Positions 3,403 through 52,828 are shown, numbered from the stretch's first letter. The stretch is DNA of 64,000 bases from Trichoplax sp. H2 (GCA_003344405.1 NOWV01000018.1:496001-560000), one strand, 5' to 3'. Notes: generated from the letters alone by a model not told the origin. Numbers and translations: made by a program.

Positions 3403-3491
3403 CGTCGACTACAGTACTGTACAGTATGACATGCTGAATCCACTCCAGTATACACTATACTGTACTATAGTAGCGTAACCGCCTATCTACT

Positions 3492-3577
3492 GTACGGTGG
3501 CTCATTGACAAATAAGGGAATACGCATGATGTCTTACAAAGCAAAGTAACAAGATTTGTGGATTTGAGCCACCGTAC
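3492..3577. mobile_element. Tiny MITE-like element, probably Tc1/mariner-derived
   Basis: Perfect 13-bp inverted repeat gtacggtggctca / tgagccaccgtac, with TA flanking the CGGTG termini. Confidence 0.55.
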
Positions 3578-27700: not shown

Positions 27701-27787
27701 ACAAACAATTCCAACTCTGTCGCATCATCAGCTCATCAAACACCAATATGGGACGAAAGTAATTCTTTCAGAATGGTTCAGGAATAG
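15770..27787 (+). CDS. CTNNB1: Beta-catenin (armadillo-repeat protein), ~890 aa, about 14 coding exons
   Basis: Phase-consistent GT-AG exons: 15770-15811, 21052-21137 and 21374-21408 (these three tentative), 21973-22161, ~22996-23201, 23742-24049, 24180-24381, 24868-25008, 25104-25211, 25739-25945, 26075-26479, 26603-26753, 26858-26976, 27308-27787. Diagnostic motifs: [86 protein letters not shown]. The core from 21973 on is high confidence. Confidence 0.93.
23304..23774. repeat. Intronic ~61-bp degenerate tandem array derived from the beta-catenin intron/exon junction
   Basis: Repeated atttagcgactagcag...taccg matches exon sequence gatttagctactcgcagtataccg (23751-23774). Confidence 0.75.
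25330..25750. repeat. Intronic ~220-bp tandem duplication including the 3' splice site
   Basis: aataagattgaa.gctaatc.actt.atta...aataggaaaata occurs twice, with AG at 25518 and at 25738. Confidence 0.8.
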
Positions 27788-30058
27788 TTAAGGAATCCTA
27801 CCTACTGTTATTAAAGTCTGCATTCATCTAATTTGGCTTGATTTCTGTTCTATCCCTTCGTTTGTTGTAGTATTACAAACTTCTACATAAAGATTTTTAT
27901 CAGCGTATACATTATTAACGTCAAGGCTAGAATGATAAAAGGTGGAACTTTTTTATTGATCTATATTCCTCTAATACGCTGCTTTTTCGGTTTATACATT
28001 TCCGCTAAACGATTCAATCTCAGTTTTGGGCGAGATTTTTAAACTTCCAATTGTCTATTTCTATAAGCCTATATCCATCCAAAAGAATAATATCATGTAT
28101 GAAATGAATTATCAACGACAATGTAGTCCCTATCTTATTGGTCTTCAATCTCATTTCACTTGATGATTAAGATTTTCTATTAACTGGTGTGTTCTCTATC
28201 TGATAAGCTTCCAACGATAGAAGAATACCTTTCCCGTAAAAGCAGTTCTTACAGCGTCGTAGTTAATAACAGACTATTCTACCTTGTAGCCTGCCATGTA
28301 GTATTACAGGCAATAGTCACAAAATTTGGGATAGTCCAGTTGTTATGTAGCGATTGATATTAAAATGTTTTCTCTTTTGTATGAACTGAATGAACGATAG
28401 TAAAAACGATATCCAATGTTGTTTTTATAATTATCTTTAGATTTTGTTATGACGGATATAGAAAAGCTTATCTTTACTCTAATCCTATTTCTTAAAATTG
28501 CTATGCCTGGTCGTGTGTTGCTATGATAATTACATCATTATAAATTAATGTAGTAGAATAAATATAGCAAAATAGAGATCTTCATTTGTATTAGCTGCTT
28601 TTTAAATCGGTATACTGAGTATGGTAGCAATCCTAATCATGCGACATTAAACGGTAGCTTAAATCTTTATCATTAGCTATCATTAGATTCAATTTGCACA
28701 TATTTCCTGATCCTTATGCTAATTAAAAATTTGATTTAATGATCTTTTAGCTTTTACAATTTTAGCTGTTAAAATTGTAATGAATTTATTAAAATTTGCT
28801 GTTGTGCAATGCTAGATTGGATATCTTGTTGTATAATATGGAATATAATATTATTTCTGTTTTTTCTTTATTTTTATCATCAATAGAATTGATTATAGTC
28901 CTTAATTATAAATTGATTTTAAAATTAAAAGCTCGTCGCTAATGATCTTCTTGTATTTTAAGCTAAGATAAAATTAGCCCGACGTTGAAAAATTTACGAT
29001 GAAGATGCCCATCACTAATCGTAATGGACTAGATCATATGATGAACTGTTAAATATTCAACGACTATTTTCAGTCGTTGTGATCTTTTAAGCTTTCAAAA
29101 ATGAATATCGTACAATGTTGCCTGTTCAATACTTTGGTCAATGATTGGTTATAATCATAACATTTTGCAGCCAGCGCTTTTCGAGTTATCGTTATAGTAA
29201 AATACTTTGTGCTAGTTTAGGTAAAGGAATTTTTATGACAATACTACGATGTTTGGCTTTTTAACTTAAGAGTATGTCAACTCTTATTTGAATTAATATT
29301 TAACATAATTATACAATTAATGGACAATTAATAAAAGTTTACGTGTAATTATTTCTTTATAAATAAAGCTACTTCGATATTTTAAATCAGAGTGGACTAA
29401 TAATGATTTACTACGATAAGTGAAATAGTATCGTCTTGATTATTAATTCTTGCAGAGTGGTGTAAATTAGATATGATTCAAGAAATCTTAGGGATATGAA
29501 TTGACATAATATTCTACCCTTGCTTATAGATTAAATCATGCATTCTATTATTAATGTTAGCGAAACTCTTTAAAGTCAGATCTTACACATTCGAAATTAA
29601 TCAAGTCTCCCAGTGAAAATTAAACTTTCCACTATTCTAAAACGATAGTAGAACCAAATTAAACACGGAAGCATGAACTATTGGAAAGAGAAATTGATTA
29701 TTTTATATGTATATTAGAAAGGAGAATACAAATATATAAGTATATGAATATAATTACAAAGAAATACCGGCTCTCATGCTTGAATTTGATTCTATGCTAT
29801 TGATAAGAATTACGCTAAATTTTGACAACTAATCAGTTCTTAAAAATAACTAGTACGGCACTATACTATATTTTATGGCGTTGTCTAATAAAAATGAGGT
29901 ATGAGTTGATTTATGAGACTTTAAATTCAATCAGAATGATTGATGCTAACAAAATGAGAAACGATGATTTTAAGCTTATGACTAGCGATAAATTGGATAA
30001 TATATTTAAGGTCATTTATAATTTAACATTAACAAATTTAGTGAAATGATATTTGGTT

Positions 30059-32868
30059 CTATAAGTTGATCAACGGATGGCATTGTTTATTCATCTAAAG
30101 GAAATTAATAACATAGGTGTAAAAAGCATTCATTAATTCTATAATGTACGAAATTTTAATCTCAAAGTATTGATATCATCGTTTTGTAAACCACTATATA
30201 TAGTGATTAATTATAAATAATTTAGAACGTAGCCGACTTACATTGCATGTTTCAGAAGTATGCTTATTGATGCAGCCATAGATTGGTCCTAAATCGCATT
30301 TATTTGGCATCAGAGTGTTAATCTCGTTGGAAAATTGCGTATAAGCTCTAGCTTCTGAATCCTTGCAGGTGTTTACTAGTAACTAGTTATGATAAACATA
30401 AAATAGAAGCTGTCTTAGTGTGGTTCATGATGTAATGAAGCTTACTGTACCCGTATATAGGGCAATCATGTAGCACTGATAATTATAATAATTTAAATTT
30501 AAATTATCAGATATCCATAATTATCCAATTAGACTCTAAAATCTGTCTCTAAATAGTTCTAACAACTTCATATTACGATATTGAAATTTCCATTACGGAC
30601 CGTAATCAAATTAAAAATTTAGCAGTAGATAAAAGTATTTCTAGAACCTGCCTTGTGATTGAAGAGTTATGGTCGTATAAGTATACGGTATTACACAATC
30701 TATGACGCCTACATAAGTTGTAATAAACGAAACTGATATATCTCGAAGCAATGTAGCCCTAAAGCATATGACTTACACGACAGATTGTCCTTGGAGGTAA
30801 TTTTTCGATAGTTTTTATGATACCGGGCATGTAGTTTCGAATAAAATCTATGCACTGAATATAGGTTATAACATCGAATGATTACACTTAAAAAATGAAA
30901 GTTTTCTTCAGTTTTCATTTTAGTCATATGAGTATAATTCATACAAAGGCCTTTAATAGCAGTAATACTAATAAAGTATGGCATACCAGCTTTTGAGCAG
31001 CATCGGTTAAACTCTCGCAAGCACGGTCAACGAGTACCTGTATTAGATTTTCCTATAGAGCAATAAATAAGTTTTGAACTTATTTAGTCCTTTCTCTATT
31101 AATATAATTTCAATTTGACATATTTGCAAAAAATCATCAATATCAGCATTGGTTAAGTCCTTTTAGAACTTACAAGTTCGCCTTTGCGTTCAAATAATGC
31201 TTCAACAACTGTAACAAAATATTCACAGTAGCCACATAGTGTAGCATTCTTTGAGCCAGGAAATGAAGGAACTGCGAAGATTTTAACAACAAAATAAATA
31301 CGTCAACCCATATATTTTATTCAAAATTAGAACTTTACATAACCAATGAAATATGGCCCTATTTTCAATTTGGGCTAAGATAACTACAAGAAAGTTAACT
31401 AGCATTGACTAATAAAATTCGTTACTCACCAATAGGCAAAACACTTTGTGCTAAAGTCTTGCTAATCTTCGCTTCGTAGCATATCTGTTCAGTGGTAGCG
31501 CCAACATGAAGTAGTTCAATGATGCTCATAAAGTAATTTTGAGTAATAACTTGGCACTAAATTGATAAGTAGAAAGATTTCAGGATATTAAAAGATTGAA
31601 TTCGATATCATTCTTCACCTGAATAATAATGATGACAAATTATGATAAAAATGAAGCATTTTCTAGGCTAACCAGTCTTACCACTTCACGCGATTGTCCA
31701 GGAAGGATATTACATATTCTACGTGATTGCTCAATTATAAATTTCTAGTGTATGTGAAAGCATATAAAAGTTAAAATAGTTAAAACACCAGTCCATCACT
31801 CTATGCAATATTTAAATTGTAAAACTAAACTTAATTTTGAACCATACCTTGGTGAAGTTAAGATTCAATAGTCTTTTCACTTGTCGTGTTATATACAAGC
31901 AATGGAATGGTTGCTGTAGTTCCTATATAGAGTGAGTTGGCAATATAAAGTCTTAATTTTATCTATCCATTTTAACAGTAGATATCATGCTGTCTTAGAT
32001 ATATCCAGAAGCATTTTAAAGGAACGCATTAGGCTACTATAAATTACCAGCTGTTCATTGTTCGATGCCCTCCAAGCAAAGACTTGGCAATAGTCGACGG
32101 CATTGCATTGCATTGCAGTCTCAGCCGAGCTACACCAGTATGTTGCACCAGCAGAGCAACGGCTTACTTGATGTAGTGTAGCGCTTTTGCATTGCCCTGC
32201 AAAGGAAAATCAAGCAAATTTATTTATGTCAATAACATGAAAATAATAATAATAATAATAATAATGCTTTTATGTGATGTAATTCTTCTAATATGCTAAT
32301 TATATTCTAATTCGATTTTTGCAAAATGTGGTTCCACATGAGCTAACTTGACCAGAACAAGAACGAAGCTAAAGTTGCAATCGATAGAATACTGATCTTT
32401 TCTGGTTACAACTAATATGTATCAAGCGTGTATAAGACATCGTCCAATCGGTAGAAATTACTACATGTGCATTTCGCTGGTGTTCTACGGTATATTTTAT
32501 GGCATCGATTGACAGCTAGCTGTGAATCTATTTAGTACCACACTTGATTTGAGTAGAACAACCCTATCATGACCTCTACGACGAAATAGGCCTCTGGTGG
32601 AAAATTCTCTATTCGCCAACATGAATTCATCATAGCATTCAATAGAACAAACTAGCTCAAATCCATGCCATTTCTTTTCGTATTACAGAATTAAATAGGT
32701 GAAAAAAAAGCTCTATTTTGCAGCATGTTAAAAAATATTGCTATCCTGAGTAATTAATTATCTATGATTAATATCAATCGATGAGTTGAATGATGAAGAG
32801 CTGATTTTTAGCTCACCGATAGAGCAGCAGTAATAGAATGCCACCAGCACGATTATCAATCTCATCAT
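30059..32868 (-). CDS. Prosaposin-like secreted protein, copy 1 (signal peptide-SapA-SapB-SapB-SapA), ~294 aa
   Basis: Exons 32868-32817, 32196-32048, 31922-31848, 31744-31682, 31556-31430, 31271-31174, 31052-30987, 30854-30777, 30382-30242, 30094-30059 splice in frame. Signal MMRLIIVLVAFYYCCSIG; SapA CSAGATYWCSSAETAMQCNAVDYCQVFAW; SapB CGYCEY...C...C...CRLLVNTC; terminal SapA CDLGPIYGC...CNMNKQC. Confidence 0.9.
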
Positions 32869-34469
32869 CTTCAATTTTGAATTTTATCCAGGGGAAGTTA
32901 GATGAAAAATTCGGCAACTACTTTCAATACTTTGAAAACTTCCAAGTCGATCTGATCAAGGTGAAACCAACTGTCTCTAGCAACTGGCAGCTTACCACTC
33001 GCTATTTGATCGGATGAGATTATTTTGCTCGACTTTATGTAAGCGGTACTACCGATGCCTTTTAAATCAATCGATATTGTGATGATAATTGATTTTGTTC
33101 GGACAAACGGTAGGAGATACCAGATTTAGAGTACTAAGTACTGTGGCTAACGGTGCATTGCATGGGTAATATGTACAATATGTGTCTAGTTCTATCGTCT
33201 TGATTATACAGCACAGTATGGAGAAACAATACTGATGGATCTTCTACGATCGTCGTTGGATGATACCATTAAGAGGGGAAAAGACAGTAGACAGACTGAG
33301 CTCGCCAACTGACTTGAACACCAATACAGTGGATGTGCCCATGAACTTAGTACAGTGAATTAAACTACACAGTGGAAAGTATTGTAATCTAAAACCATTA
33401 CGTAATGTTTTTCGACTCGGCGATCATCTTCAATAAACAAAGAGTCGCCCAGACGACTTTAGCATTGTGTATGATACCATATCGGGTACAATAGATACTT
33501 GTATCAGCTATCGTGGGCAAAATGGTTGTCTATGAGAATAGGATTAGTTTAAAATGAAAGGTGCATATACAGTAGTAACGATAGAGAAAAAACGACTATC
33601 TTCTTCTAGTGCATCATACAACAAATTAAAGTACGCGCAATACACTAGAGATTGCAAGCAAGGCCGATTACCATAATCTACAGTTCATTTAATTAAAGGA
33701 CAGCTCGTTTTTGCAACATGACGACGACAATAATAAATAGAAATTAATTTAAAGCTAACTCAGTCAAGTTGTTTATCCTTGCTTACTACCATTGGACAGA
33801 GTAGCTAACGATGCAATCAATATATTAAAAATAAACTGATGAAGTCATGCCATCACTATCTCCAACCGATGAAAAGATCGAATCGATTTCTTCCACCTGC
33901 ATATTGTTCTTATGTTTACATCACGTGGTAGAATGCCTAATGTCAATAGAGCTACTCGCGAGCGATGACCTAATTTGGAAGTGTTATTTTGCAAGGATGG
34001 CAGTGAGTGATATTCTTTATTTCAACAAAAACACCTTTAATTAATATCCACCAACAAGGCACTGCAGGCCCAGGTAGAACTTATTGTAAGTGTGGAGGGA
34101 ATGTATATTTCGAAAACGTAATAGGCGGTAATAATATATATTTATCTCCACTAACCAACGATTGCGGGGATGGAATAGAGATGTTATTATTCTGCATGCA
34201 TCGAAGGATGTCATAGTAGAGACTATTGGATTGAGTATTTCTCTGCTTTCATTGTATATTGAAACGATCTACGTAGGGTTGGCTACCATGATGCGATTGC
34301 CAAGGTTGGATATTGGCATGGGGTAGTATGGGTGGATATCTACAGTATAAGACCATAACATAAAGTTGTTTATATACGTGTTTAGAAACGTTTAATGAAG
34401 TAGTTTACTTTTGAACTAGAGGGACGAGTTCCAATTTCACAGATAATCAAATAGAAATTGAGGAGTATA

Positions 34470-35245
34470 CTCAATGTTGATCAACAGACAGAAACGCGTA
34501 AATTTAGATATAAGGGTATACTTTCGAATATTACTCAAGCCCAATAACAGATATTGTACTATATTAAGTAGTTATAAGTAGAAAATGGCTTCAAGCGAAT
34601 CGAAAGATGTACGCATGAGTCGATTATATGACATCATTTTTATTTAATGAGTACAAAGTACATATCAATCATGAAATGATAAAAGGTATGTATATAAAAT
34701 TAGATTATTACTGTACCTCAGTAATAGCAACTTTAGCTCTAAAAACTAATTTGATCTAGTTACGTAATATACTGTCAATAAAATTAATTAAACTACATTT
34801 GAACGTAATCATCAAAAAATTAGATACTGTAATCTCCAATAAAGCATGAGATACTCAAATCGATTTTGAGTAGGATGCTGAATATTGATGATCAGACACA
34901 AACGCGTAGATTTATAGATATTGGAGCACAGTATACTCTCGAATATTACAGGTATACAAAAACAGACGTTATATGCCCTGTACTAAGCAGGTATAAGTAG
35001 AAAATGACATCAAGCGAATCGATTATATAACATCATTGCCGTTTAATGAGTATAAAATACATAATATTACACATCAATCATGAAATGATAAAAGGAATGT
35101 ACGCTTATATATATAATTAGATTATTACCTCAGCAACGGCAATTTTAGCTCTAAAAAATAATTTGATCAACATACGCAAGATACTATTAATAAATTAAGT
35201 TATGCTTGAATCCAATCCTGAAAAAATTGGAAACTGTAATCTCTA
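34470..35245. repeat. Degenerate tandem duplication, ~410-bp unit
   Basis: aaacgcgta, tataagtagaaaatg, caagcgaatcga, atcaatcatgaaatgataaaagg and ctgtaatctc each occur twice in the same order. Confidence 0.85.
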
Positions 35246-37901
35246 GGAATGTAGTTTTATTGACCTACGTTATACGTTAGTATTCGTTCAAAACAAATCG
35301 AGATTGTAATAATCTAGATGATAATAAAGAATTGATAGCTTACATTATTTGCCCAGCAGGAATGCTTACTGCATATTGCACAATCAAAGTAGTTTTAAAA
35401 TACTGTTATCGTGTTTAAAATGTCAATAGTTGGATGCAATCACGACTACAGAAGCTTATGCCAGGCATACTACGATAAATTTTTTAAATTGTAATAATAA
35501 TTCAATAATGTATACCTAGAAAATTAGAATAACATATCACAAAATTTAAATACCACGTCGTATTGATCAAAGTTTTACGAAGCATCCATCGTGTTATACC
35601 TTGCTCGACCAACCCGTTAAATCGATGATGTAATGTGTAAAAGTATAAGATCCATGATACACAGTTCAATTCCCATATAATGACTACATACGCGGATAGC
35701 ATACTGCATTACTGTAATGATATATTGTATATACATTAATCATGAAATTACGCTGTATAGCGAGCGTATAATACGCATCGTGACGCTGAAGGATTACCTA
35801 TACTGTACTGTATGTCTATCACGTTATTTTAACTTTTCTTCTAGTATCTATATGAATATCCATATAAAATCATAATAATTTACCAAAGAATTAAACACTT
35901 CATCATGTTGATCTACCTTATAAAGCATCCATCGTGGCATATCTTGTATGGTCAATAGGTAAAATCGATGATGTACTGCTAAAAGCGTAAGGTTCATAAT
36001 GTAAGCATTATTTTATCGCCATATGAGGGCGATACATGAAACTTAGCACCACATACATCAGCTACGACACTGTATATGTAAATAATGATGATATCTATGT
36101 TGTTCAATTTTGCATACACATGTTTTAGCTATACGGTATAATTTTGTATTTCGATAAAATTATAGCATATAAGGTAAGATTAGCACGCACAATCAATTTT
36201 TTTAAATTGCATGGCCGGTAATAATGCAATATCTGTGGCCATGGAGTTGTTATACCATGCTCCAGAACAAAGTATAGTGCTCCGTTGATCATAGTTTGAG
36301 AAAGCGCCCATCGTGCAATATTACGAATGGCCCCATAGATTAAATCGATTATGTAATGCAAAAAATCGAGTCCCTGGTGTGTTAACTACATAAGAATCTA
36401 CGATTTTCTGTATTAATAATATAATTGTAGTATGCATGTAGATACACAGTACATACAAGTATAATCACTCATTCCTTTTGAAACTAAGCAATCATGTAAA
36501 ATTGGCCCTGTATTTATGGCATGACAAAAGTTTTAATCATGACCAAATAGAAGAACAGCCAAGGTAAGTAAGCCGATCATTAAAGTGAAATGTTGCACGT
36601 TTTCATAACTGATGTTACTGTAGACTGTCAGCTACTAGTATTGCTGTAATGCCGGTATTTATTAGTTCATGTTAGAGATCATCCTCCTCCTAGTTTATCT
36701 CACTACAGTGTGACATCATCATAACATCGAAAAGGGACGTAATATTGTATTTTTATCGTTGTTTGTTTTTTGTTACCACATTTATAAGTATGCAAATTAT
36801 TTTATTAGTAAAAATGAGATAAATAGTAACTAAAACTATTTACGGCCTTAAGATGTTTTCATGCTACTGGTAGAATTCCATTCGAGGTTAATAAGCAGAC
36901 CTGGAACTAGTCCTGTTTTCATAATGAGTAACTTGAAAACAAAGTATGAATTGCTCCAGATATTTTTAGTCGAAATTTTTACTCCCAGCTATGACTTCTA
37001 ATAGAGGAAATTTTATGAATTATAACAGTTAAGGTACTGAATTTGATAAGAGTATGATTTAAGGAGCTAATAGCAAATAAAGTATAGAACTGCAGCATCC
37101 AACATTTATATTCAATTTGGGGTTGCTTATCTAGATGAGCTTTCTTGTCAATTGGCAAATAGCAAGAGATGAAAATTGATCAATAAGTAAAAAATTATAA
37201 TGAGAGATTGCTTCTTTCGGTAGTCAAGGTTCAATAAAATAATCAAAAGTATGGTACTATGCCTTTCTTATCGAATTGGTTAACTAGTTGGTATCAATTA
37301 GATTATTAAATTGCGTTATTGACCTTTTACAGACATCTATTAAAGGTAGAGAATAGCTTTATTGTAGTCTAGCCGTAAGAAGTTAATTTCTAAATTGATT
37401 TTTATCATAATATCTCTTCTTAAATTCTCGTTCAAAAAGCACCGTTTCATCTAACAAGATTTAGAAACTATAGTTTATTAAATTGTTCTGTTAAAGTTTG
37501 AACTACCTGGTTGATAGTATAGTTGAAAATTTTACTGTTTTTCATTCTAGAGGATATTTTCTGATCGGCCTTCTAATAATAACGTTGCATCCTGACATTT
37601 CAGTCATCGATAAGGGTTTTAGCGATACATATCAATTTTAAGTAAATTTATCTTGGAACTATATTTTGATTTCAAGATTATCGCAGATTTGGTCATTAAT
37701 ATATCATATCTGCTAATCTTAACCAGATCAATGTTTATCATAACATATCTCAAACGGCGTTAAGACAAGACATAATCTTCTTAACTATCTTCCAGCCCTA
37801 ATTAACATTGCAACGATGTTAAGGCAACACGTTTTACCCAGTTTAATTAAAAAATCTAGAACATTTCTTTTATCCTTATGTAGACTAAACTAGAGTTTTC
37901 A

Positions 37902-38400
37902 TTAGTTTTTCCTAAGAGTCCTAGCCAGGCGATGCTCTTTCATCTAAGAAAGGAAATAAAATGCTTTCCTTTGCAAGACTGCTACTATAAAGCGCCGGAG
38001 CTTCGGATAGATTAAAAGCAAAGTAAATAATATGAAATTTTGATATATATAACATTGCTCTGTGAATTCTTGGATTTAACAGCTATAAATCGGTCCCAAA
38101 ACACACCCATTAGGCACAAGTTCATGAACACGATGCAACATTTGAAGGCTACTTTGTCCATCGTGACCATTACAAAGGCGAAAGGTTACAGTGGCTTTAA
38201 TAAAATAAAATTTATCCGCTTGAGTCCCGGATTATCATTACTTGCGGCTATTATAATTGCAGCTTGCAATAATCACATGAAAAGCAAGCAACTACCAATT
38301 TAGAATATTCAATACTTAGGTACTAGGATATTTTCTAATGGAAAGGATAAGGGATGTTTTTTCATCAAAGGATTATAGAGGTATAGCAATTGCATATGCA
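37902..38400 (-). pseudogene. Decayed fragment of a fourth saposin-like paralog (terminal exons)
   Basis: 38189-38049 is a 141-nt homolog of exon 9 (LCNGHDGQSSLQMLHRVHELVPNGCVLGPIYSC*IQEFTEQCY) with in-frame stops and non-canonical splice ends. 37943-37902 resembles exon 10 (MKEHR, Cys->Arg). A possible exon-8 remnant starts at 38400. Confidence 0.75.
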
Positions 38401-39130
38401 CTGTAGCGTAGTCAAAGTAAGTGGAGTAGTAATTTGAACGAAACAGTATTGATCAAAATTAATTATAAAATAATCAGGCTATTGCATCTTTTTGACACGG
38501 CCATTTGTGCATATTAAATTCATTTTCGACGCAAAATTAATAAAGATTCTCGCGAAACATTGTGAAGCCTCTTTTTGGTATTAAATGGAATTAATGCAAT
38601 ATATCGTTTATTATAGAGCAAGAAAATCATCTTGCGGTAACATGATTGGATATAAATTTATCATTTACAGATTCTATGAAATTAAAGCTAAGAGATCAAA
38701 CACGACAGTAATCACTAATTGAAACCAGGAATACAAAATTTTAGTTATCATAAAGGATGAGGAGATAAAAGCTGTAACTTAAATATTACTTTCGCTCTAA
38801 ACACATATAGAAATGAAACGCTATCCAGTAAACAAACTGTAATCTTCTTATGCTACTGATATCACACTTTACTCTCTTATTTAATCCAAGCTGATAAATC
38901 TGCTATTAAGCGATGACTAAGATTTAAAATTTAATTTAACGTGGATGAAGTAGCATTGCATCCAATGCCTACTTGTTCATCAAGATGGTGTCGATATCAG
39001 GAGCTTAAGTAGGACGCTAGGAAAGGTTCACGGATAGTACGTTAAAATAAATTTACTTTTCCTATTTCTTGTAATCCTTTCAAGGGTATTCCGACTAAAT
39101 CATATTTGATAGTGGTAATTTTCTAGTTCA

Positions 39131-42100
39131 TTATTGACCACTGAGCATCTTACTGCACTGCTTTTTCATCTATAATCAGAATTAAAATATGCGAGTCTTG
39201 ATTGATGAACCTTAAATTCCCATAACTTGATAGAAATCCGACATGATGATGACAAATCTCCAGAAATAAAATGTTAAAATTACTTTCCTTATACTTACAT
39301 TACACCGTTCTGCAAATTCTTGATTATAACAGCCGTAGATGGATCCCAAAACGCATCGATCAGGAATTAATTGATCGATCTTGTTTAAGATATTAAAATG
39401 CTGTTGTCCTGACGGCCCAACGCAAACATTCAGAAATAACTATCATATCAATAGAAATTTCATTTAAAAATTATCCCAATTAACTCAATCAGTCTAACAG
39501 TAAAACTTACAAAGCAATCTACTCGTGGAGGTAAGTTGATAAAAGCTTCAATTAAATAAGCTAAGTCATTGTTGGCGAAATACAAACACTAAAATTTTCA
39601 AAATAGAAAGATTTAATTTTAATTTTATCATTGCTAGGTACGACATTAGTAATGCAGTTCTATCACGATCAAATCATATCTAACTCATGGAGAAGCTCAA
39701 ATATAAACAAGCATAAATATGGTTCAAATTTTCATTTTCCTATTAAGCTTTGCCGACCTCTTGATTTTCTGGTGGTGGTAAATCATTACAGACTTGCATT
39801 CTAAAAGAACTAATTAAGTTTTGCTGGATAGATAAAAAAGTAACTAGAAATTAGATTATTATCATTTTAGATGCTACCGTAATCAAAATTTTCCATTTAA
39901 ATTGTTATAAAATTTATAAAACAATAAAAAATCACGCAGTAAAAGTATTTCTTATACAAATATCATTCAATAGGCGATTTCTTAGATAGTATGGTGAAAT
40001 AATATACAAAAAATAATCATCATCAACAATCCAAACATAAATTATTCCCTTACAAATTCCTTTGGTTCTTGTAATTCTTGATCAATAAGGGCAAATAAGT
40101 ATTCGCATAAACCACATATAGTACTGTTCATATCTCCAGGAAAGGGAGCAACTATATTAGAGCCATACAGTAATAACAGTTTTAGACAATTCGCTAACAT
40201 TGCTTAGCCAAAAGCCAAGTTCCATTAGCAAAATTTGATCATTTAATAGCTCAGTTGCGTTAACCATCGGCCAATTTTATAAGTATTCCTTACTCGTTGG
40301 CATATCAGGTAGACTCAATTTTTTAGCTTGCGGCAGCAATTTTCTTGCCATGGTCAATTCACGACAAATTTGCTCAGGCTTTTCTCCTAGCTCGATATAA
40401 GCAAATATCCTTTCCAGAAAATGTCGAACCCTAACTTGACACTGCATTTTAGCAGCAGATGAAGGCTAAAAATTTCATTACAAAATCAAAAATTATTTTA
40501 GTACAGTTATCTATATATCCAGTGTAGCTAAATGTGCAAAAGTTTATCGAATTCAAATATACTCTATACCATGGAGCGAACGTTAGAGGATATTCTATTA
40601 CATAGCTTGAAAGCTTGTTTTATAAAAAATTCCTGTTTTAAAAAGATAAAATAGGGACTTATTAGTGTTTTAATTGAAAAAATTATAGCAAGACTGTTTG
40701 GGCTCATTGTATAATATTCTCTTTAATCTAAACATAATCATAGTGTCTCAAATTAGAACAATTTCCTATAGTTGGAATCTTTACTTTGGTATTATTAAGG
40801 TGTAACCACTGTCGAATTATTCTTGTAGTAAATACGCAGGAAAATGGTTCCTGAAGATCCTATCACCGATATAATCGAATAAAATAAATTTTAATCGTCA
40901 ATTAATAAATCTGTGTTAATTTATTATTTAAGTAGAATAGAATTCAAATGAAAGCTTTAATACTGAATTTAGACTTATTATTGAAAACTATGCTAGTTCC
41001 TTGAACATCATTTTTATAGCTTCAACAATTTATAATTTCAGGTACGCGTATATGTTATAAAATCTAGCATAGATATTAATAATACTACACGTAGGTAATT
41101 ATCATTCAATTATTGACTTACTTTTAGCTTTTCAGGCAGTGGTGATGAAACATGATTGGCAGGTTTTATCATTTTCATTTCAACAGTTTTGCTATAGCCT
41201 TAAACGTCCAATCATACGTAAATTTAGTGTCATGCTAATTGAATAACTTTATTATAAATATCAAAATTGCAAAGCTACACAAATATTGTTATTAAAGCTA
41301 TTTAATGAAACTCTTTCTACTCTTCTTTTAAAGAAATACAACTCAAATGGCATAATTGCAGTCTCCGATTCTAATATTCCGTGCAATATCTCATTAATAT
41401 TGTAATAAAATCAATCTAAGTACAAAGTGGTTTTGCGGTAGCCCGAACATTCAACTGTAAACTAGCATCTCCTACTATAATAACCATAGTAACTTAAAAG
41501 GCCTATTTTCAAATAACAAATTGCAAGCGTCGATAAAGTATAGAGTAGCTAGCTACTCAATAACGGTTATTTAAGCTATTAATTATATCCTAATAATAAG
41601 TGCATAAACTCTTTCTGCTCCTCAACCTAATAATTTGTCAAAGACGAAATGGTCACCTAAATAAATCTCTTTGCTTTCATAACTGACTATGATTATGACC
41701 GAAATTAAGAAATATCGCAACAACATATGGGCTACTGCTGAATCTAACTCATGCAGATCATCTTCTAAAATTAAACAATATTATCTTCCTATATGGACAG
41801 GTATTGGTATAAGGTATTTGTATAGGATAGAGCTCTTCCAACTTTTAATAGCAAAATACCGCTACATGTTGTAAATGAAGCATATTCATCAAATCGCGAT
41901 TCTCTTAGGTCAGCACGATCAAAAGATGGCTTAACTATGCAATAAGTAAGTATAATGCATCTATGAACTCTTGCTACCATCTATTCAGAAAAGATGCAAT
42001 ATGTTATGGAATCACTTAATAAGCGATTCCCAAGGATGATAAGCAATTTTTCCGTGAGCGACTAGTCAACAATTGAATGTCATGAAAGCTATAAAAATCA

Positions 42101-42436
42101 CTTTATAGTCGCCTCTCAAGCTTAATAAGCAATTTCTTCATGAGCAATTGTAGAATCAGCAATTAACTGCCACAATAGCTATAAAAACTAGATCGTTTAG
42201 ACGATATCTACAACAGCTAAGACTTGATCAAATAATATGAGTAAGCTAAAGTTCTTCTATTGCAATTATAAGTGCATAGTTCAGAGAATTAAAATAGCAC
42301 AGTAGTAGCTATCGCAGAAAACTTGGTTAAGATAGCAAACATCACAAGTTGTAAGCTAAATCGAACTTAATAAACTATTTTTTTTACCTAGTTGGCATAG
42401 ATAAAAGGCAATAAGTAATAAGATGAAAGCTTTCAT
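39131..42436 (-). CDS. Prosaposin-like secreted protein, copy 2 (signal peptide-SapB-SapB-SapA), ~277 aa
   Basis: Exons 42436-42388, 41198-41122, 40859-40785, 40632-40570, 40441-40294, 40151-40054, 39823-39758, 39588-39511, 39439-39299, 39169-39131. Signal MKAFILLLIAFYLCQLG; CGLCEYLF; LPPRVDCF; CVLGSIYGC. Exon lengths 75/63/98/66/78/141 are identical to copy 1. Confidence 0.88.
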
Positions 42437-44524
42437 TGTTCAGTTTTTTGGGGGAAAAAGTTACAATTAAGTCTATTAAAAATAATCAGTTGCTGGGAAT
42501 GATCTTTCGGTCTTTATGAGCACTGATTCCTACTTTCACGAGTGTTATCTTATACTACCCCCGTAGATTGCACTAGTAGTGATTTAAATAGTAGAGAAGC
42601 AAGCCTGTTGATAGTTTATTACCTTTACTTAATTGTTATGCATCGATGTAATCGTTACTCCCTTTTCTAATTACATTTGAAATAGTACAATGACTTTGTT
42701 ATTATTATTAAAAGCTATGAAGATCTCATTATTTAGCTAATGAAAAGAATGAAAGAAATATGAATTATTCATGCTATCGGATGTTCATGTAGGTTAGAGT
42801 TCAGTGGAGGCTAACAGTAATGAAATGATAGAATCTATTAAATCACTAGTCAAGCAATTTAAAAGGAATCTGTATTGAAATACTGGAGGAACTAGCATTA
42901 CGTCATAGTTCAGAGAGCATGGCGATAACTTGAACGGTTAAAAATTTGAACCTTCTTATGACTGCTTGAAAAGCCCAAAAATTCTCTCTGAATGTAAGAG
43001 GAATATTGCTAAGGTATTAGTTTACATCAGTTGTTCATTTCCAGTTATAGAGTGGTGCTATGGGATTAAATTATCGTCTTTACCACCATGACATTAACGA
43101 CCATAATGTGACTTATAAATGACCCCTAGCATTCGAATAACGCAAACAACATTATTGAGCTCATTCCAAATTGTAAACATTAAGCATCTGAACTTTTACA
43201 TTCAAGACTCAAATCTCTTATACGAGTATTCCCCTATATAGTTGCAAGTATAATATAAAAGCACATGTAAATCAAGCTATTTTTAGATCAATAAGGAAGT
43301 AGAACTGTTTTCATAACCTTCTACGGAATATCGATTCATGTTTATCTCAAAGGCGATAGCAGCCTGTTTACAGTATATCCTCTTAAATATCTATTCTTTC
43401 TTAAATTTACTTATTAATATAATAATTCAAACAAACTCATTCAATTCTGATTTAGACTATGTTAAAACTAATCCATCAGAAAAATTTTAATGCACTGGTA
43501 TTCAAAAATTATTATCTAAGCTGTACAGTATTTCTGCCAAGAATAATTTTTCAATATTCTAGTAATTTCTTTTTTGACCTCATGTGCATCTACCGTGACC
43601 ATATAGTCCAAATTATAGGCTGTAGTATACTTGGCAATGGTAACTAAAATTATTTATCGGTTATTTAGTAGCTACCTGATTAGCTAATTACATAGTTATA
43701 TCGCAGTGTATTTTATCGCAGTATGTAAGTGGACTCAAATACTGCAAAGCAGTGTTGTATTTCCACCAATGATAATTTTTTCACCTTTCCAAAAGCTACC
43801 ATTTGGTATTGAAGTGGATAAAATCATATAGAGTGAGTCCATGCTAGTATAATTAATTCTGAAACTAGCTCACTCTACCCATGCTCCTGAATTCATTCTC
43901 AATTAATAGGTATTATGGTTTGAGTTGGTACCTGCGAATTTCATGTAAATTAAAATATAGACGCTATTACTGTTTATTACCTCATTACGGATGCATAAGA
44001 CAAGTTAACAAAGATTGCAAGCTCATTATCTGGCATATTTACGAGATTATTGAATGAACAATGCCATTAGCTAGTATGTTCTCTTTTTGATTGTAACAAT
44101 TTTAAGTCATTGCTAATTACTAGGTGGATATCGAAATGACGATATCAAGCGGCGTTTATTTCTAGATTCTTCGTTTATTTAGCATCCTCATAATTAGTAC
44201 ATGAGAATTTGTTAAAACTTAGGCCGGCACATATATACGTATATGTATAGTATTGTATACGTATAAAGCCTTGTTAAAAATACTTTGGTTTCTTATAATG
44301 AATTCTACTTGAAAACATTGAATATTAACCTTGGCAGTAACAATAGAAACTTCAAATGTTATCCTAATTTTGTAAATTTGTTACTGTTTCACTAACTTTC
44401 GATTCTATCACAAGTTCGATTTCAATTAGAACTTGTAGTAATCTGTATTACATTATTTTGTAGAGGATATATGTCAATTCTAATTGACATATAACAATTG
44501 TGACTATAAAGACGGCAATCATAA

Positions 44525-47277
44525 CTACAGCTTCATTAAAGGAAGGCAATGTTTTTCGGACTGAAAAATAAAATTAAAAAATTGTATCAAAGGAAATATT
44601 GAGTTATAAAAATAGTCATAATACTTAATAATGATATTCCTACAATGATTATCGTCAGCACCTTGCTATATTATAAGACACAATTCCTACGATTGCTAAC
44701 GGAGATGCACTTACGTTGCACTGTTGCATAGTTTTGTAATTAAGACAACCATAGACTGGTCCAAAGATACACTTATTAGGTATCAATTCATAGACTTTAT
44801 TCAAAAATATGGCATTAGCTTCACTATTAGGACCGGTGCATGTATCTAAGATTATCTGAGAATAAACAGTAAGGATGAACTTAAGAATGCAAGCTTAAAT
44901 ACCAAAATTTGGCTAGGAAACGATATTATAATGATTATACGCGAGTATCACTCTTACTTTTTGATCAAGTGAAACTATTAAATCGTTATCATTCAGACAC
45001 TAATCGCGAAATTAAATACTTACGAAGCAAAGGGTTCGAGGAGGTAAACTAGCGAGTGCTTTTAGAATATAGGGAAGAACCTCATTTGCAACATCAATAC
45101 ACTGCAAAAATATATTTAAGAATACATTGATTGATAATTCCGGTTAAACAAAGAGCATCTCTACGTGTTCATCATTGGAGTGATCCACGAGAAAGTTAAT
45201 TTCGAATTATTTCCTGAATAATTAAAGCAATTTGCTAAATCCAACAAACCTTAGCTCTCATTTTTCCATCTAGCAGATTACAAACTGTTGTAATAAAGGT
45301 ATTTTTAAGTATTTCCTGGGATATTCCGTGAGTTATAGCATTAAAGTTGTAAAAAAGTGCAGTGCTTAGTAATAACGTTTTTAGCAACGAATAGTATGTC
45401 ATAATTATCTGAATTACTCGCAGTTTAAGAGTAGGAAGAAGCATATTTTGACTTATAATACGATCTTAGTAATTCATCAATAAAGATATATGTTACCACT
45501 AAAAATTTAATGAAATAATTTAACACTTTAAATTTGATATGAAACAGCAGTAGCGCTCGGAAATCACCTACTCTTTTAAACTGCCAGAACTACAGTATAT
45601 GCGATTCAAACACACTATATAGATATAACTACAATAATTTCACTCGTAGAAATTGCTGTCGCGCTTTGGTTTGCTCAAGTTTTTCACATAATAAAATTAC
45701 GCAAAGATCAGACCTACTGCAAATACGGCTTTGTGATAAAGTATCTTCAAAATATTAAAATAAGAACTAATATTTCTTGCAAAATTTCCTGTTTTATTAC
45801 ATAAGCCTGGTTCGTTTAACAACACTATTTGTCGTACTTACCACTTCGCTGGGATCGTTAAGAACTTTTTCGAAAATTGAAAAATACAGTTTGCATATGC
45901 TACAGTTTGTAAATCTCATAGCTATAAAAAGATAATTATAGAGTAGGCTTTAATCCATCCAATTTCGTACTATTAATATATTTGGTACATCTATCTAGGC
46001 TAATTTTTAGTAGATTGATGGCAATTATATAAATGAATGTTTTTGATTAAAGCGCGGATGTACAATAGTAAAACTATAGTATGCCAAATACAAAAGCTTT
46101 TCTTGTTCGCTTAATACTTAGATATTATCGAATGAAAGATAATCTTACGAGAAGAAAACTGAGCTTGATTCTTCAACGTGTTCTTATAACAGAAATCTTC
46201 AGCACTGTTAGCACTTTGCAGGGATATTATTAAATTCAAAGCGTATGATTCAATATTTTGATCGCACTAAGCGTTAATATGTCAAATAGAGAAACAAATG
46301 AGCTTCATTAATATCTATCCCAAATTAGTAATTGTATTTTTAATATTCTATTCACTAAAAGGCAGTTTTATTTAAATCAAGTGTGAGGGTAATGATTATT
46401 ATCTACTTTACTTACATGTGATTTTAATTCTGTAGGAAGAGCTTGACACATATATTTAGCATTCTCGGCTAAATATTCCTTTAACGCAGAATTAAATGTA
46501 CCTGATAAACTCATACGGTTTCTTAGAATATCTTAATCGAGGAAATGGAACTTTCACTTACCGCGGTATATTTGTAGTTTAATAAATGCTTAAGATGCCT
46601 TGCAACGTATACGCAGAAGAAGGGTTCGGGTGTGTTCTTAAGTATATTTCGATACAATAACATCAATTAGATAATTAATCAAGCAGCTAAGATGATAATA
46701 ATCTTATTATGACAAAGTATAAGGTAATTGTAATTATCGCCCTTGTATTATCTAATCGCTACTATTGCAAATATTCACTTTATCTCAAAGTTGATGCTAA
46801 TTGACAAATGAGTTTAGTCGTAGTCTATCCTATAGCAAAATTACATTTACAGCATATGACTTAAAGTATCTCACACAATACGTATCTAACGAGTATATGT
46901 GTTATTATGCTTATTAGCCGAGATCGAGTTTTAGCGGTACCATATACATTGGAAGAAATTGATTTTGTACGACTCATTTTAATCTAGTTGTTGCTATTTG
47001 TCAAGATTAGTATGGTTACACCATTATTATAACTTTATTCGAACCTGCAAATTGAGATTGCGTTCAGCAACATTGGAGGCGGCAACGTTGTGGAAGTTAC
47101 CTACTGTAGAGTTGAGTTAATGTTACAAATCCCATGATCATTAATGGCATTGTGAATGCTCAAAGTTGTAACAAAGCTGGTTATCTGAACATGAATGATA
47201 TCAAGTTATGAAGGGATTGTACCTGCGCCGAGCATAGCGTAAACCACAAATAATAAATAGATCGATGCTGTAGCCAT
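44525..47277 (-). CDS. Prosaposin-like secreted protein, copy 3 (signal peptide-SapB-SapB-SapA), ~256 aa
   Basis: Exons 47277-47223, 47103-47045, 46636-46562, 46478-46416, 46266-46149, 45921-45842, 45315-45250, 45101-45024, 44855-44715, 44560-44525. Signal MATASIYLLFVVYAMLGA; CSICKLY; LPPRTLCF; CIFGPVYGC. Exon lengths 75/63/66/78/141/36 match copy 1. Confidence 0.88.
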
Positions 47278-47529
47278 ATTTGCCGTAGATGAGCCCAAAT
47301 AATGATTGATATGGATTGGCAGCAATCGAGGCTAGGAAATGCTGCTAGGGAAATTTTTCACTTGGTAGAGTAATTGCTGCTAGCCAGTAGACTAGGAATA
47401 GCGATCCAACTTGAGAAAGCCTTTTGATGGAGGTTTCGGAAACTTAATTAGCCCGATTAAGGATGGCGATGACGTCATGCGCCGTCCCGTTACCATACTG
47501 TAACTGACGCCAGTACGGTAAGTCGGTTT

Positions 47530-47940
47530 ATCGTATGGAAGTTTGACCTGGGCCTGGGCGTAAGTTGCAAAAAGAGGGAGGGACGGAGAAACGGACGAGG
47601 CCTTAACCAAAGCAGGCTGACCTTTTAGTACGGTAGTTCAATGTACTGCACAATACAGTACTGTACTGCACGGTCAGTACTGTACGTTGATCGTATAGAA
47701 GTTTGACCTTGGCCTGGGCGGAAGTTGCCAAAAGAAGGAAGGACGGAGAAACGGACGAGGCCACACCAAAATAGGCTGACCTTTTAGTACGGCACTTTCA
47801 GTACGGTAGTCCAATGTACGGTACAGTACGCTTATGGTATGAAAGTTTGACTTGGGCCTGCGCAGAAGCTACGAAGGGGAGGGAGGGACGGAGAAACGGA
47901 TGAGGCCACACCAAAGTAGGCTGGCCTTTTACCTTTTTTA
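47530..47940. repeat. Three tandem GC-rich ~95-bp cores separated by TACAG-rich spacers
   Basis: aagtttgac.tgggcctg...ggacggagaaacgga.gaggcc...aggctg.cctttta starts near 47539, 47699 and 47843. Confidence 0.9.
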
Positions 47941-48855
47941 CTGGTCATTTGACTGTACCCTACCGCAGTACATTTGTAGCCGTATAGACCTACTGTACTG
48001 TAAAGTGTACAGCATTAGAGGCAAGGGCTAGTCAAGGAGAAAGGGACGGGAAATGGTCGTTCCCTCTAGTCAATATGTGATCAACAAATTATCGTTACTG
48101 ATTATTTTAACGGTATCGCGTGTCTATAATGGTATACTATAGTATCCACGATGGATATCCAACTTAGCTGCAAGGATAGTTTGATGCAGTTTCTGCAGTT
48201 TGCTACAGTACAATCATGGAATCAAATCATGGACTGCTGTATTCATGCATAAATAACAACTTGAAAACTTGAAAAGTACATTATCCCTGTAACGAGATCA
48301 AGAATCTGAGATTTTGAGCTTTCCTTTCTTTTAGTCTACTTTTTTTGGAAGCCCAAGCCAAGCGCGATATCATACCCACATTAACGAGACATAAAGAACT
48401 GTGACAACAAATCAGCTCTAGTGCGAACATAACTTGAATACCATATCCTAATGGACGTAAACATTTCTAGCATGTGATCTTAATCTAGTAACAGTAGATA
48501 AAGGTGTAGATAAGCCGTAAATAGTATTGTACGATATCTAGGATTGGCCATGTTCTATGTTGGGTACTCTACAAGGTAACAAGCAGTAGTTTACAAGACA
48601 GGCAATGTCGACAAATTCCCTTGCAATGACCTCGGTGGATGAGAGCTTCTAGCGACAAAGAATAAAACCGGTATGTTGGTTAGGGTTTTTCTTTTGCCCA
48701 CAAAACATACCGGTTTTTTCTTTTGCCCTACTACTTTATACTAGTTATACAGTACTATTTGCAGTGAAATTCTGATGCAAATAAAGAAGGTAAATAAAGA
48801 AAATTTTCTTGACTGCGTCAGATCATTACGTTGAGTACCACTCTGTAGCCTTAGC

Positions 48856-49036
48856 ATAGTGACATCACTTTTGCTACTGTTTTGCACTACGTGTACTACA
48901 GTACAGTCGCACTCGTGACGATTCTTTGCAGTGCTTATTGTCTATACGGTACTGTACTGTACTCCACTTGTTTACAATCCAATAAAGGTGAATTCTATAC
49001 AATGAAAGCTACTGTAGCAAAAGTAATGTCACCGTA
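48856..49036. mobile_element. MITE-like element (~180 bp) upstream of the sulfite oxidase gene
   Basis: Inverted repeats gtgacatcacttttgctac (48859-48877) and gtagcaaaagtaatgtcac (49014-49032) match at 18/19. The right end reads CACCG|TA. Confidence 0.6.
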
Positions 49037-49370
49037 GTCCGCTTAACGTCTAGGGTGCTGCTAGTCCTGTCCGGTCCAGGGCTGCCTACGCACAGATTGT
49101 ACTGTACACCTTCAAGCTGACGCAATATTATTCTTTGTCTACGTGACGTTTTGGTCGGAAACGGGGGAAGCTATTTCCAGGAGCCAACAGCCATTTTTTC
49201 ACGACCAATTAAGGGGCAAATCCTTTCCTCCAACGTTAATTAGGAGGAGGTCTTGCACAGATTAAAACTTGATATTGAATATTAACAAAGTGTGGATAAA
49301 TAATACTGTAGAGACAGCTCAGTGTGGAAGGAGTTGCTAGCGTCTCTACTAATGCTAACCTTGCTTGAAA

Positions 49371-52300: not shown

Positions 52301-52828
52301 CAAATACCCACAATATTGTACAATATTTATGATCATGTACCTCGATCATAACGTAGTACATTTTCTTAATAGTGTTTTTGAACTTTTGAAGACTGTAAAT
52401 GATTGCATGTATAATTTTAAATGATAAAAGTTGAACTTTCCACGTTCAATATCTGATAGGATTGCCAGAGTGGACGTCTCTTTAGACAACGGCGTTACGT
52501 GGGAGCCTGCCACAACGATAAATGGTGAAATAAAGGATAATACTAATAGATATTGGAGTTGGTTTCTTTGGACATACACCGTTAGATCTATGCCTTCCCC
52601 ATGCCGTATCGTCTGCCGAGCGTGTAAGTTTACTCATATCAAGATACTGTAGTTCTAAAATACGTTCACTTTAATAAGACAATAATTTACAATCAATCTA
52701 ATCGATTAATTTTAGGGGACTATGCATCAAATAGCATGCCTGGAGATGCACCTTCAATATGGAATTTGCGTGGAGTCATGAATAATAGTTGGCATCGAAT
52801 CGACGTTGTGAGTAAAAGCAAAATTTAG
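49371..52828 (+). CDS. SUOX: Sulfite oxidase (Moco and dimerisation domains only, ~377 aa)
   Basis: Exons 49371-49543, 50768-50864, 51048-51095, 51265-51354, 51455-51549, 51638-51671, 51761-51834, 51933-52023, 52110-52264, 52460-52623, 52716-52828 splice in frame. Motifs: PFNAEPP, FYVRNH, Mo-ligand [64 protein letters not shown]. Confidence 0.95.

Follow-up and report, generated by a model that had tools for sequence, protein, structure and literature searches.

Tandem cluster of prosaposin-like genes

The window analysed here is a stretch of 64,000 nucleotides (nt) from Trichoplax sp. H2 (GCA_003344405.1 NOWV01000018.1:496001-560000), and it contains a tandem cluster of three genes of the prosaposin family, here called A, B and C. 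The DNA is AT-rich and eukaryotic (GC about 0.31). Its exons are 100% identical to proteins of Trichoplax sp. H2 and 96-98% identical to proteins of T. adhaerens, which establishes the placozoan host that the original prediction, made from the sequence alone, had named as a condition. Between 30 and 47.3 kb the stop-to-stop frames of the minus strand hold numerous short cysteine-bearing pieces that resemble saposin exons. The cluster consists of three ten-exon genes, all on the minus strand and transcribed in the order C, B, A, with a relic exon between B and A. At its outer limits, 30059 belongs to the stop codon of gene A and 47277 is the A of the ATG of gene C.

Gene A, 30059-32868, minus strand: coding exons (stop included) 32868-32817, 32196-32048, 31922-31848, 31744-31682, 31556-31430, 31271-31174, 31052-30987, 30854-30777, 30382-30242, 30094-30059; lengths 52/149/75/63/127/98/66/78/141/36 nt
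Gene B, 39131-42436, minus strand: coding exons (stop included) 42436-42388, 41198-41122, 40859-40785, 40632-40570, 40465-40294, 40151-40054, 39823-39758, 39588-39511, 39439-39299, 39169-39131; lengths 49/77/75/63/172/98/66/78/141/39 nt
Gene C, 44525-47277, minus strand: coding exons (stop included) 47277-47223, 47100-47045, 46636-46562, 46478-46416, 46266-46149, 45921-45842, 45315-45250, 45101-45024, 44855-44715, 44560-44525; lengths 55/56/75/63/118/80/66/78/141/36 nt
Relic, 38040-38177, minus strand, between A and B: exon-9-like pseudo-exon (end of SapB2 and start of the C-terminal SapA)

Exon borders were obtained by a scripted search for exon chains that give the exact H2 proteins. The spliced model of gene A equals RDD45233.1 letter for letter, and exons 2-10 of gene B and 1-9 of gene C are exact spliced matches to RDD45230.1. 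Exon 1 of gene B was placed by residues 1-17 of XP_002110836 (100% identical) together with a GT donor at 42387, and exon 10 of gene C by the RNA joint 44715|44560. All introns (27/27) begin with GT and end with AG. Exons 3, 4, 7, 8 and 9 have the same length in the three genes (75/63/66/78/141 nt) and the phases are common to all three, so the predicted set of three same-strand ten-exon genes was recovered within the limits proposed for it.

The encoded proteins of 294 (A), 285 (B) and 255 (C) residues align from end to end. Their identity is 32.3% for A-B, 31.5% for A-C and 28.7% for B-C, i.e. the copies have diverged as strongly (29-32%) as had been supposed, and A finds C in phmmer with an E-value of 7e-33.

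Transcripts and public gene models

Contigs of four public sequencing runs were compared with positions 29500-47500. Run X15 is on record as RNA-seq, X4 and X9 were taken to be RNA and behave like it, and X5, which covers 27 of 30 bins at low depth and has no joint, behaves like genomic DNA. The transcript support needed by the models is present as spliced RNA contigs with depths of 45-340. For gene A all nine joints (9/9) are seen in the RNA-type contigs, eight of them in three runs and that of intron 1 in two. Among the joints listed for gene C, at least six of nine are seen (introns 4-9). In X15, X4 and X9, with depths of 80-339, exon 9 of C (donor 44715) is spliced to 44560. This defines the true last exon of C, a paralogue of the last exons in A and B that contributes the final cysteine of SapA. 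For gene B the contig pieces of three runs stop exactly at 39169, the acceptor of exon 10. The following transcript features were obtained, including 5' and 3' untranslated regions (UTRs).

About 29679-32976, minus strand: transcript of gene A (5' UTR to about 32950-32976, 3' end at about 29679-29767; X4 records 7 and 9, X9 records 21 and 23)
38572-39130, minus strand: 3' UTR of gene B (contig pieces 38572/38589/38758-39169 in X9, X4 and X15)
44525-44560, minus strand: true last exon of gene C, 11 codons (44560-44528) and the stop codon (44527-44525)
43903-44524, minus strand: 3' UTR of gene C (contig pieces 43903/43960/44010-44560)

Contigs of two runs are unspliced across intron 8 of gene A (30353-30806), with a depth of 10-25 compared with 200-340 for the spliced form; they represent either intron retention or pre-mRNA.

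The cluster had been described as hidden. All three genes are, however, already in NCBI and UniProt, under the name 'Prosaposin' in H2, and in the tables of a published cell atlas. They correspond to the following records.

Gene A: H2 RDD45233.1, 'Prosaposin' (294 residues), TrispH2_002541; T. adhaerens XP_002110835/TriadG63722
Gene B: T. adhaerens XP_002110836/TRIADDRAFT_54160; 3' half of the fused H2 RDD45230.1
Gene C: T. adhaerens XP_002110837/TriadG63723; 5' half of the fused H2 RDD45230.1 (TrispH2_002542)

The T. adhaerens records XP_002110835/6/7 are consecutive and appear in UniProt as B3RR99, B3RRA0 and B3RRA1, 'Saposin B-type domain-containing protein'; two of the three carry the label 'expressed hypothetical protein'. 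The H2 record RDD45230.1 ('Prosaposin', 599 residues) joins exons 1-9 of C, two extra exons and exons 2-10 of B. In T. adhaerens, the model XP_002110837 puts the end of C at 42736-42674, 2 kb downstream and near the start of B, and the model of A has an extra 30-nt exon (10 residues) between exons 8 and 9, at about 30425-30520, which the H2 RNA joint 30382|30777 skips. The true last exon of C is in neither public model. Two sets of deposited exons were rejected.

41980-41860 and 41764-41627, minus strand: fusion exons outside the genes, found only in RDD45230.1 and with no similarity to gene A; rejected as gene parts, as exon 9 of C joins 44560 in three runs
37924-38082, minus strand: terminal exon of XP_002110836 (residues 274-326), the relic region read in another frame; rejected as last exon of B, as the H2 contigs end B at 39169-39131 followed by the 3' UTR

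B and C lie on separate contigs, whose lengths are compatible with single genes; contig totals of 1221 and 1506 nt are compatible with gene B alone (exons 1-9 make up 819 nt, plus UTRs). The fusion exons (41627-41980) and the B-C spacer (42722-43322) have little or no depth in the three RNA-type runs and are covered by X5, and the absence of depth here is not evidence. A rare fused C-B transcript may exist. The three separate ten-exon models are better than the deposited ones. The public errors (the H2 C-B fusion and faults in all three T. adhaerens models) affect expression counts and orthology tables, and tables built on RDD45230.1 mix two genes.

The conflicts among the deposited models, namely the fusion of C and B in H2 and the differing last exons in T. 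adhaerens, would fit the view that the models are annotation artefacts or decaying pseudogenes. Against this stand the open frames, the 27 of 27 canonical introns, the depth of the spliced contigs, the 0-1 substitutions per protein between H1 and H2 and the orthologues in four species. We give this explanation practically no credence. It is refuted for A, B and C and holds only for the relic at 38040-38177.

Domain organisation

Each protein has a hydrophobic N-terminus, a first SapB domain (SapB1, exons 3-5), a linker, a second SapB domain (SapB2, exons 6-9) and a C-terminal SapA (exons 9 and 10). The first 17-19 residues are hydrophobic, with a grand average of hydropathy of 1.75-1.92, and end at the border of exon 1, which suggests a putative signal peptide in all three. 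There are two SapB domains per gene, not four as in vertebrates. The predicted content of two SapB domains and one C-terminal SapA is right for all three genes, but it missed an N-terminal SapA in gene A:

32048-32196, minus strand: exon 2 of gene A, N-terminal SapA (Pfam PF02199, 47 bits, E-value 2.5e-12, single-exon translation)

Only gene A has SapA at both ends (two SapA stretches in RDD45233.1); B and C have it at the C-terminus alone, and their exons 2 are short, free of cysteine and in the same phase as the SapA exon of A.

A Pfam scan of 13 single-exon translations finds SapA on four exons, the strongest at 31988-32209, and SapB_2 on exon 8 of gene A alone (30762-30881) with 23.1 bits, above the cutoff of 21. 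Weaker SapB_1 or SapB_2 matches fall on four more translations. On the full protein of gene A, SapA scores 45.7 bits, SapB_1 (PF05184) 23.8 against a cutoff of 25.2 and SapB_2 (PF03489) 18.7 against 21. The C-terminal SapA of B covers residues 566-594 of RDD45230.1 (37.7 bits for the protein), and exon 9 of gene C alone reaches 20.9 bits for SapA against a cutoff of 22. The Pfam scan of the spliced proteins that had been proposed as a check thus supports SapA, above its cutoff, but leaves SapB_1 and SapB_2 below theirs.

SapB1 is basic in A (isoelectric point, pI, 9.1) and in B (pI 9.6), and SapB2 is acidic in both (pI 5.3 and 4.05). Both SapB domains of C are near neutral.

Relationship to prosaposin and other saposin-like proteins

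A phmmer search with gene A against 1.84 billion representatives gives 705 proteins at E-values up to 1e-3 and 49 at up to 1e-30, the best being giant multi-saposin proteins. Ten matches were named by organism (Aplysia, Physella, Bulinus, Elysia, Styela, Acanthaster, Mercenaria, Anaeramoeba, Lymnaea, Porites). Three of the ten carry saposin-type names (Elysia 'proactivator polypeptide', Porites 'prosaposin-like', Anaeramoeba 'saposin-related'), and the other seven are unnamed or 'uncharacterized'. In a comparison of A with PDB sequences, SapB1 pairs with human saposin C and SapB2 with saposin D, both with an E-value of 2.9e-5. An N-x-T sequon in SapB1 falls in the alignment where saposin C is glycosylated. 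Granulysin also matches A, but less well (E-value 0.0013). Judged by Pfam SapA, phmmer and the PDB matches, A, B and C are members of the prosaposin/SAPLIP (saposin-like protein) family by sequence, as had been proposed.

The similarity to vertebrate prosaposin (PSAP; saposins A-D) includes the putative signal peptide, SapA termini (at both ends in A, at the C-terminus in B and C), tandem SapB domains with linkers, the sequon aligned with that of saposin C, and the pairing of SapB1 with saposin C and SapB2 with saposin D. The vertebrate protein has four SapB domains, whereas here there are two, SapB1 is without the disulfide between the first and sixth cysteine, and B and C are without the N-terminal SapA; it is also one broadly expressed gene, compared with three cell-type-specific paralogues here. 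T. adhaerens has in addition a canonical prosaposin, TriadG64348 (SapA-4xSapB-SapA), which belongs to the same family and genome and shares a fibre module with A (PMC10580291), but lies at another locus and has four SapB domains; the comparison with A, B and C is by its table entry. In the giant multi-saposin proteins of molluscs, ascidians and echinoderms (Aplysia XP_035826565, Elysia) the two-SapB unit of A aligns 5-22 times along each protein. However, these are repeat-rich proteins of 1500-3200 residues, in which every unit retains all six cysteines of its first SapB. The lytic SAPLIPs (amoebapores, NK-lysin, granulysin) have the SapB fold predicted for A, B and C; granulysin and NK-lysin are weak matches, and SapB1 is basic in A and B. 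They are small single-SapB effectors without SapA, in contrast to the two-SapB precursors of 255-294 residues with SapA ends found here.

Loss of a disulfide and the tree of SapB units

The two-SapB core of A, B and C was aligned with the best-matching unit of 136 other proteins. These come from 148 non-placozoan phmmer matches, of which 12 had no unit covering 80% of the profile and were omitted; five placozoan models and 22 extra cluster members were left out of the unit alignment. In SapB2 of A, B and C all six cysteines of the SapB pattern (disulfides C1-C6, C2-C5 and C3-C4) are present and fall in columns that are cysteine in 93-100% of the 136 outgroup units. SapB1 keeps only the second to fifth (C2-C5): C1 is proline in all three and C6 is serine, alanine or lysine, compared with cysteine in 82% (C1) and 100% (C6) of the outgroup units. 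The outermost disulfide of a SapB domain ties its first helix to its last, and with both partners replaced it is absent, leaving a four-cysteine variant of SapB1. Within the alignment, the loss of the two cysteines is a derived feature common to the three genes.

Maximum-likelihood analysis of the 139 units groups A, B and C as a single clade (Shimodaira-Hasegawa-like approximate likelihood ratio test, SH-aLRT, 99), in which B pairs with C. Two reservations apply to the tree: its branches are long, and the underlying profile was derived from these same three genes. The single clade and the shared cysteine loss agree that the copies are one family. The suggested estimate of the ratio of nonsynonymous to synonymous divergence (dN/dS) among paralogues was made but gave no usable ratio. 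The proportion of synonymous differences (pS) is 0.75-0.81, dS is infinite or 5.4 and dN is 0.65-0.74, i.e. synonymous sites are saturated and dN/dS is without meaning.

Orthologues, age and the lost fourth copy

Orthogroups and expression modules were taken from parts of Tables S3 and S4 of Najle et al. 2023 (PMC10580291), and the statements on them below apply to these parts.

OG_10455 (A): TriadG63722, TrispH2_002541, Hhon_g00534, HoiH23_001159
OG_5524 (B): TriadG54160, Hhon_g00536, HoiH23_001157; no H2 member, because the H2 model fuses B to C
OG_5523 (C): TriadG63723, TrispH2_002542, Hhon_g00537, HoiH23_001154
OG_5525 (fourth orthogroup): Hhon_g00535, named prosaposin, and HoiH23_001158; Hoilungia and Cladtertia only (Table S4)

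The identifiers were tied to the window by the NCBI name of B (TRIADDRAFT_54160) and by the flanking genes. In the tables TrispH2_002540 is plakoglobin and TrispH2_002543 sulfite oxidase; the window has armadillo (Arm)-repeat exons at 25.7-26.6 kb and exons of a Mo-co dimerisation domain at 52.1-52.6 kb, matching these two neighbours. From this match, A is 002541/63722, C is 63723 and the fused C+B is 002542. The Pfam strings of the atlas ('SapA/' for 63722, none for 63723 and 54160) agree with our scans.

A, B and C have 1:1 orthologues in four placozoan species of three genera (PMC10580291), and between T. adhaerens and H2 the correctly modelled exons differ at the protein level by 1 of 294 residues in A, 0 of 273 in B and 1 of 244 in C. 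The cluster is therefore old and stable with one loss: as far as these tables go, it predates the split of the sampled placozoan genera, and one member has been lost in Trichoplax. The birth-and-death evolution proposed earlier stands in so far as one copy died, but the 1:1 orthologues in four species speak against rapid turnover.

The predicted single relic is the pseudo-exon at 38040-38177. In tblastn its identity with B is 41% over 46 residues (E-value 3e-9), compared with 37% for C and 34% for A. An in-frame stop interrupts the SapA motif, and the donor site is missing. A search with 175 proteins and the three models gave no further relic exons or extra copies at E-values below 0.05 in 32950-38571, 42500-43900, 47300-49000 and 28000-29650, and returned only the pseudo-exon and the two mis-annotated terminal exons. 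The members of OG_5525 are numbered between the orthologues of A and B, which matches the position of the relic. From this we infer that the relic is the remnant of the fourth paralogue, which is intact only in Hoilungia and Cladtertia. Contigs of X15 cover 36575-38108, in the A-B spacer and including the relic, at a low depth (8-11), representing transcription or DNA carry-over.

The published table has at least nine family members in T. adhaerens (63722, 63723, 54160, 61366, 64206 and 64345-64348), so the family has expanded in placozoans. Elsewhere in the genome the prosaposin genes TriadG64345-64348, including the four-SapB form, are numbered consecutively, with TrispH2_006084-006086 and 006074 in H2; this suggests a second tandem prosaposin cluster in both.

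Cell types and possible function

The genes were assigned to the following modules in Table S3 of PMC10580291 (membership scores in brackets).

Gene A, T. adhaerens: turquoise, fibre (0.673), together with the canonical prosaposin TriadG64348
Gene A, H2: honeydew1 (0.665), with IRF, a DMBT1-like SRCR protein, ABCB9 and TPR-rich proteins
Gene A orthologue, Cladtertia: darkturquoise, epithelia_like (0.765)
Gene B: T. adhaerens darkturquoise, gland (0.699); Hoilungia skyblue, gland (0.664); Cladtertia sienna3, gland (0.63)
Gene C: T. adhaerens greenyellow, meiotic_1 (0.749); Hoilungia skyblue, gland (0.671); Cladtertia sienna3, gland (0.804)
Fused C+B model 002542, H2: darkturquoise, meiotic_1 (0.754)
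Fourth copy HoiH23_001158, Cladtertia: sienna3, gland (0.518); T. adhaerens and H2 have only the relic

The Hoilungia genes g00534 (A) and g00535 (fourth copy) were not found in the module sheet. A look at expression in lipophil or gland cells had been proposed as a check. B is in a gland module, and within the same part of Table S3 none of A, B and C, nor of their listed orthologues, is in a lipophil module.

Cleavage within the linkers turns prosaposin into single saposins. At acid pH these bind membrane lipids and lift them out for hydrolases. In vertebrates the C-terminal SapA of the precursor is the region needed for lysosomal sorting. We consider it rather probable that the three genes are a tandem cluster of the prosaposin family, old and specific to placozoans, in which the job of prosaposin, in lipid degradation, is divided among cell types. 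Each precursor would yield two lipid-binding saposins by cleavage, and their task at acid pH would be to lift out membrane lipids, or bring them into solution, for hydrolases. For gene A the site of action would be the phago-lysosomes of phagocytic fibre cells, which, given its two SapA ends and its fibre-cell or immune-type module, it most likely serves. B, and C in other genera, would act in digestive gland cells or be released into the acidified feeding groove, together with secreted lipases and proteases. We think that B and C are lipid-solubilising cofactors, in gland-cell lysosomes or after release into the groove.

The biology of placozoan feeding gives this division a setting. The feeding grooves are acidified during digestion (PMC12855814). 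Gland cells secrete trypsin and have secreted phospholipase A2 (sPLA2) as a marker, and the 'gland' cells of the central ventral epithelium in addition take up material by pinocytosis and digest it in lysosomes (PMC12013895). The gland module is a secretory digestive programme (PMC10580291).

Several points weigh against this division of labour. The C-terminal SapA kept in A, B and C favours a lysosomal fate as much as secretion, and no protein-level data on the processing, location or secretion of the three proteins were found. With the full proteins neither SapB_1 nor SapB_2 reaches its gathering score; B is weaker than A (19.2) and C has no SapB match. The AlphaFold2 model of A, from a 12-row alignment, is poor (mean predicted local distance difference test score, pLDDT, of 59), with helices where saposin helices are expected; its best Foldseek matches are saposins D, C and B, with target-normalised TM-scores of 0.63-0.67, probabilities of at least 0.99 and E-values of only 0.3-1, and NK-lysin is a weak match. 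The poor model and the weak E-values make the fold comparison soft support only. In the atlas, honeydew1, the module of A in H2, is without annotation by its authors, C in T. adhaerens and the fused C+B in H2 are in meiotic_1 and not gland, and membership scores of 0.63-0.80 are moderate. Care is needed with the Trichoplax values for B and C because the public models are fused or wrong at their 3' ends, and wrong 3' ends can distort 3'-biased single-cell counts.

Alternatively, all three may be ordinary lysosomal sphingolipid-activator precursors that never leave the cell, take no part in digestion outside it and differ only in the cell type whose lysosomes they serve. We regard this as doubtful, though it is the most serious competitor. 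Vertebrate prosaposin is itself also secreted, which counts against a purely lysosomal role. The C-terminal SapA of all three, the full SapA...SapA frame of prosaposin in A and the best PDB sequence matches, to the lysosomal saposins C and D, fit this explanation well, as do the presence of canonical TriadG64348 in the same fibre module as A and the lysosomal digestion by 'gland' cells (PMC12013895). However, with a canonical prosaposin and at least five further family members listed in Trichoplax, the redundancy needs explaining, and the gland module with B is a secretory digestive programme.

A third explanation takes the proteins as secreted membrane-lytic or antimicrobial effectors, like amoebapores, NK-lysin and granulysin, that kill algal prey or bacteria. 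The predicted SapB fold is common to the lytic SAPLIPs, granulysin and NK-lysin are weak matches in sequence and fold, and SapB1 is basic in A and B; the loss of the outer disulfide could in addition favour an open, membrane-inserting state. In H2 the atlas groups A with IRF, DMBT1-like and TPR-rich genes, and PMC12013895 describes the lytic components of placozoan feeding as still unidentified. The same text, however, ascribes rapid algal lysis to the granules of lipophil cells, and no lipophil module is given for A, B or C. External lysis of algal prey, put forward in the original prediction, is thus the less likely role. The known lytic SAPLIPs are small single-SapB proteins, but the precursors here have two SapB domains and, like prosaposin, SapA ends. 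In addition, A and B have an acidic SapB2, the domains of C are near neutral, and the closest sequence matches are saposins and not lysins. Taken together, we find a lytic function quite improbable. A slower membrane-dissolving or antibacterial role may apply.

A bolder version of the proposed division among cell types is unlikely, although not far-fetched. In it the gland paralogues (B, C and the lost fourth copy) would be outward-turned saposins, released by digestive gland cells into the transiently acidified groove, where a disulfide-poor basic first domain and an acidic second domain would strip and solubilise the membrane lipids of the prey for secreted lipases. If this were true, the groove would be an 'external lysosome', and these proteins would represent a present-day transitional form linking the saposins of lysosomes with the lytic SAPLIPs that amoebae and immune cells secrete.

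Placozoans digest outside the body, and the molecules that open or dissolve the membranes of the prey are still to be identified according to PMC12013895. The conserved, cell-type-specific saposin precursors of fibre and gland cells are concrete candidates for the lipid side of this external digestion. They are also an example, from an early-branching animal, of different cell types dividing an ancestral lysosomal cofactor between them. In other respects this is an ordinary gene-family cluster, already annotated as prosaposin, whose relevance lies in placozoan feeding and saposin evolution. Our literature search found no study of placozoan saposins, and no saposin entries were found in the accessible parts of the supplements of PMC12013895 and PMC12855814. 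The sequences are already known, as they are deposited, named and listed in the published atlas tables. New are the corrected models, in which the three genes are separate and B and C receive their true last exons, the additional SapA at the N-terminus of A, the four-cysteine SapB1 and the clade, as well as the link between the relic and the fourth paralogue of other genera and the reading of the module data.

Other features of the window

The A-B spacer contains a duplicated block of about 410 nt (34559-35202) whose copies are 76-87% identical, and no protein family match was found for the open reading frames (ORFs) of this spacer. Just upstream of the start of gene C, at 47526-47942, there are 3-4 copies of a direct repeat of about 145-160 nt (62-88% identical), inside the 5' UTR or promoter of the gene, as the contigs suggest. 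A transfer RNA (tRNA) scan of the window found no tRNA. The remaining features are as follows.

21900-27800, plus strand: armadillo-repeat gene (plakoglobin/beta-catenin type), convergent with gene A
49000-52650, plus strand: Mo-co oxidoreductase (sulfite oxidase), upstream of gene C; the H2 gene is in the meiotic_1 module in PMC10580291, as is the fused C+B model
54598-54909, minus strand: exon with a weak match to the N-terminus of a dynein attachment factor (E-value 4e-5)
57530-58006, minus strand: exon with a weak match to an EGF-like domain (E-value 6e-4)

All 60 N letters of the window fall in the interval 60328-61824. Identical chance matches in tblastn at 60625, 61305 and 62045 (spacing of 680 and 740 nt) suggest a tandem repeat around an assembly gap at 60328-62500, and low-complexity, ORF-like sequence similar to that of this region is found at 2800-4000.

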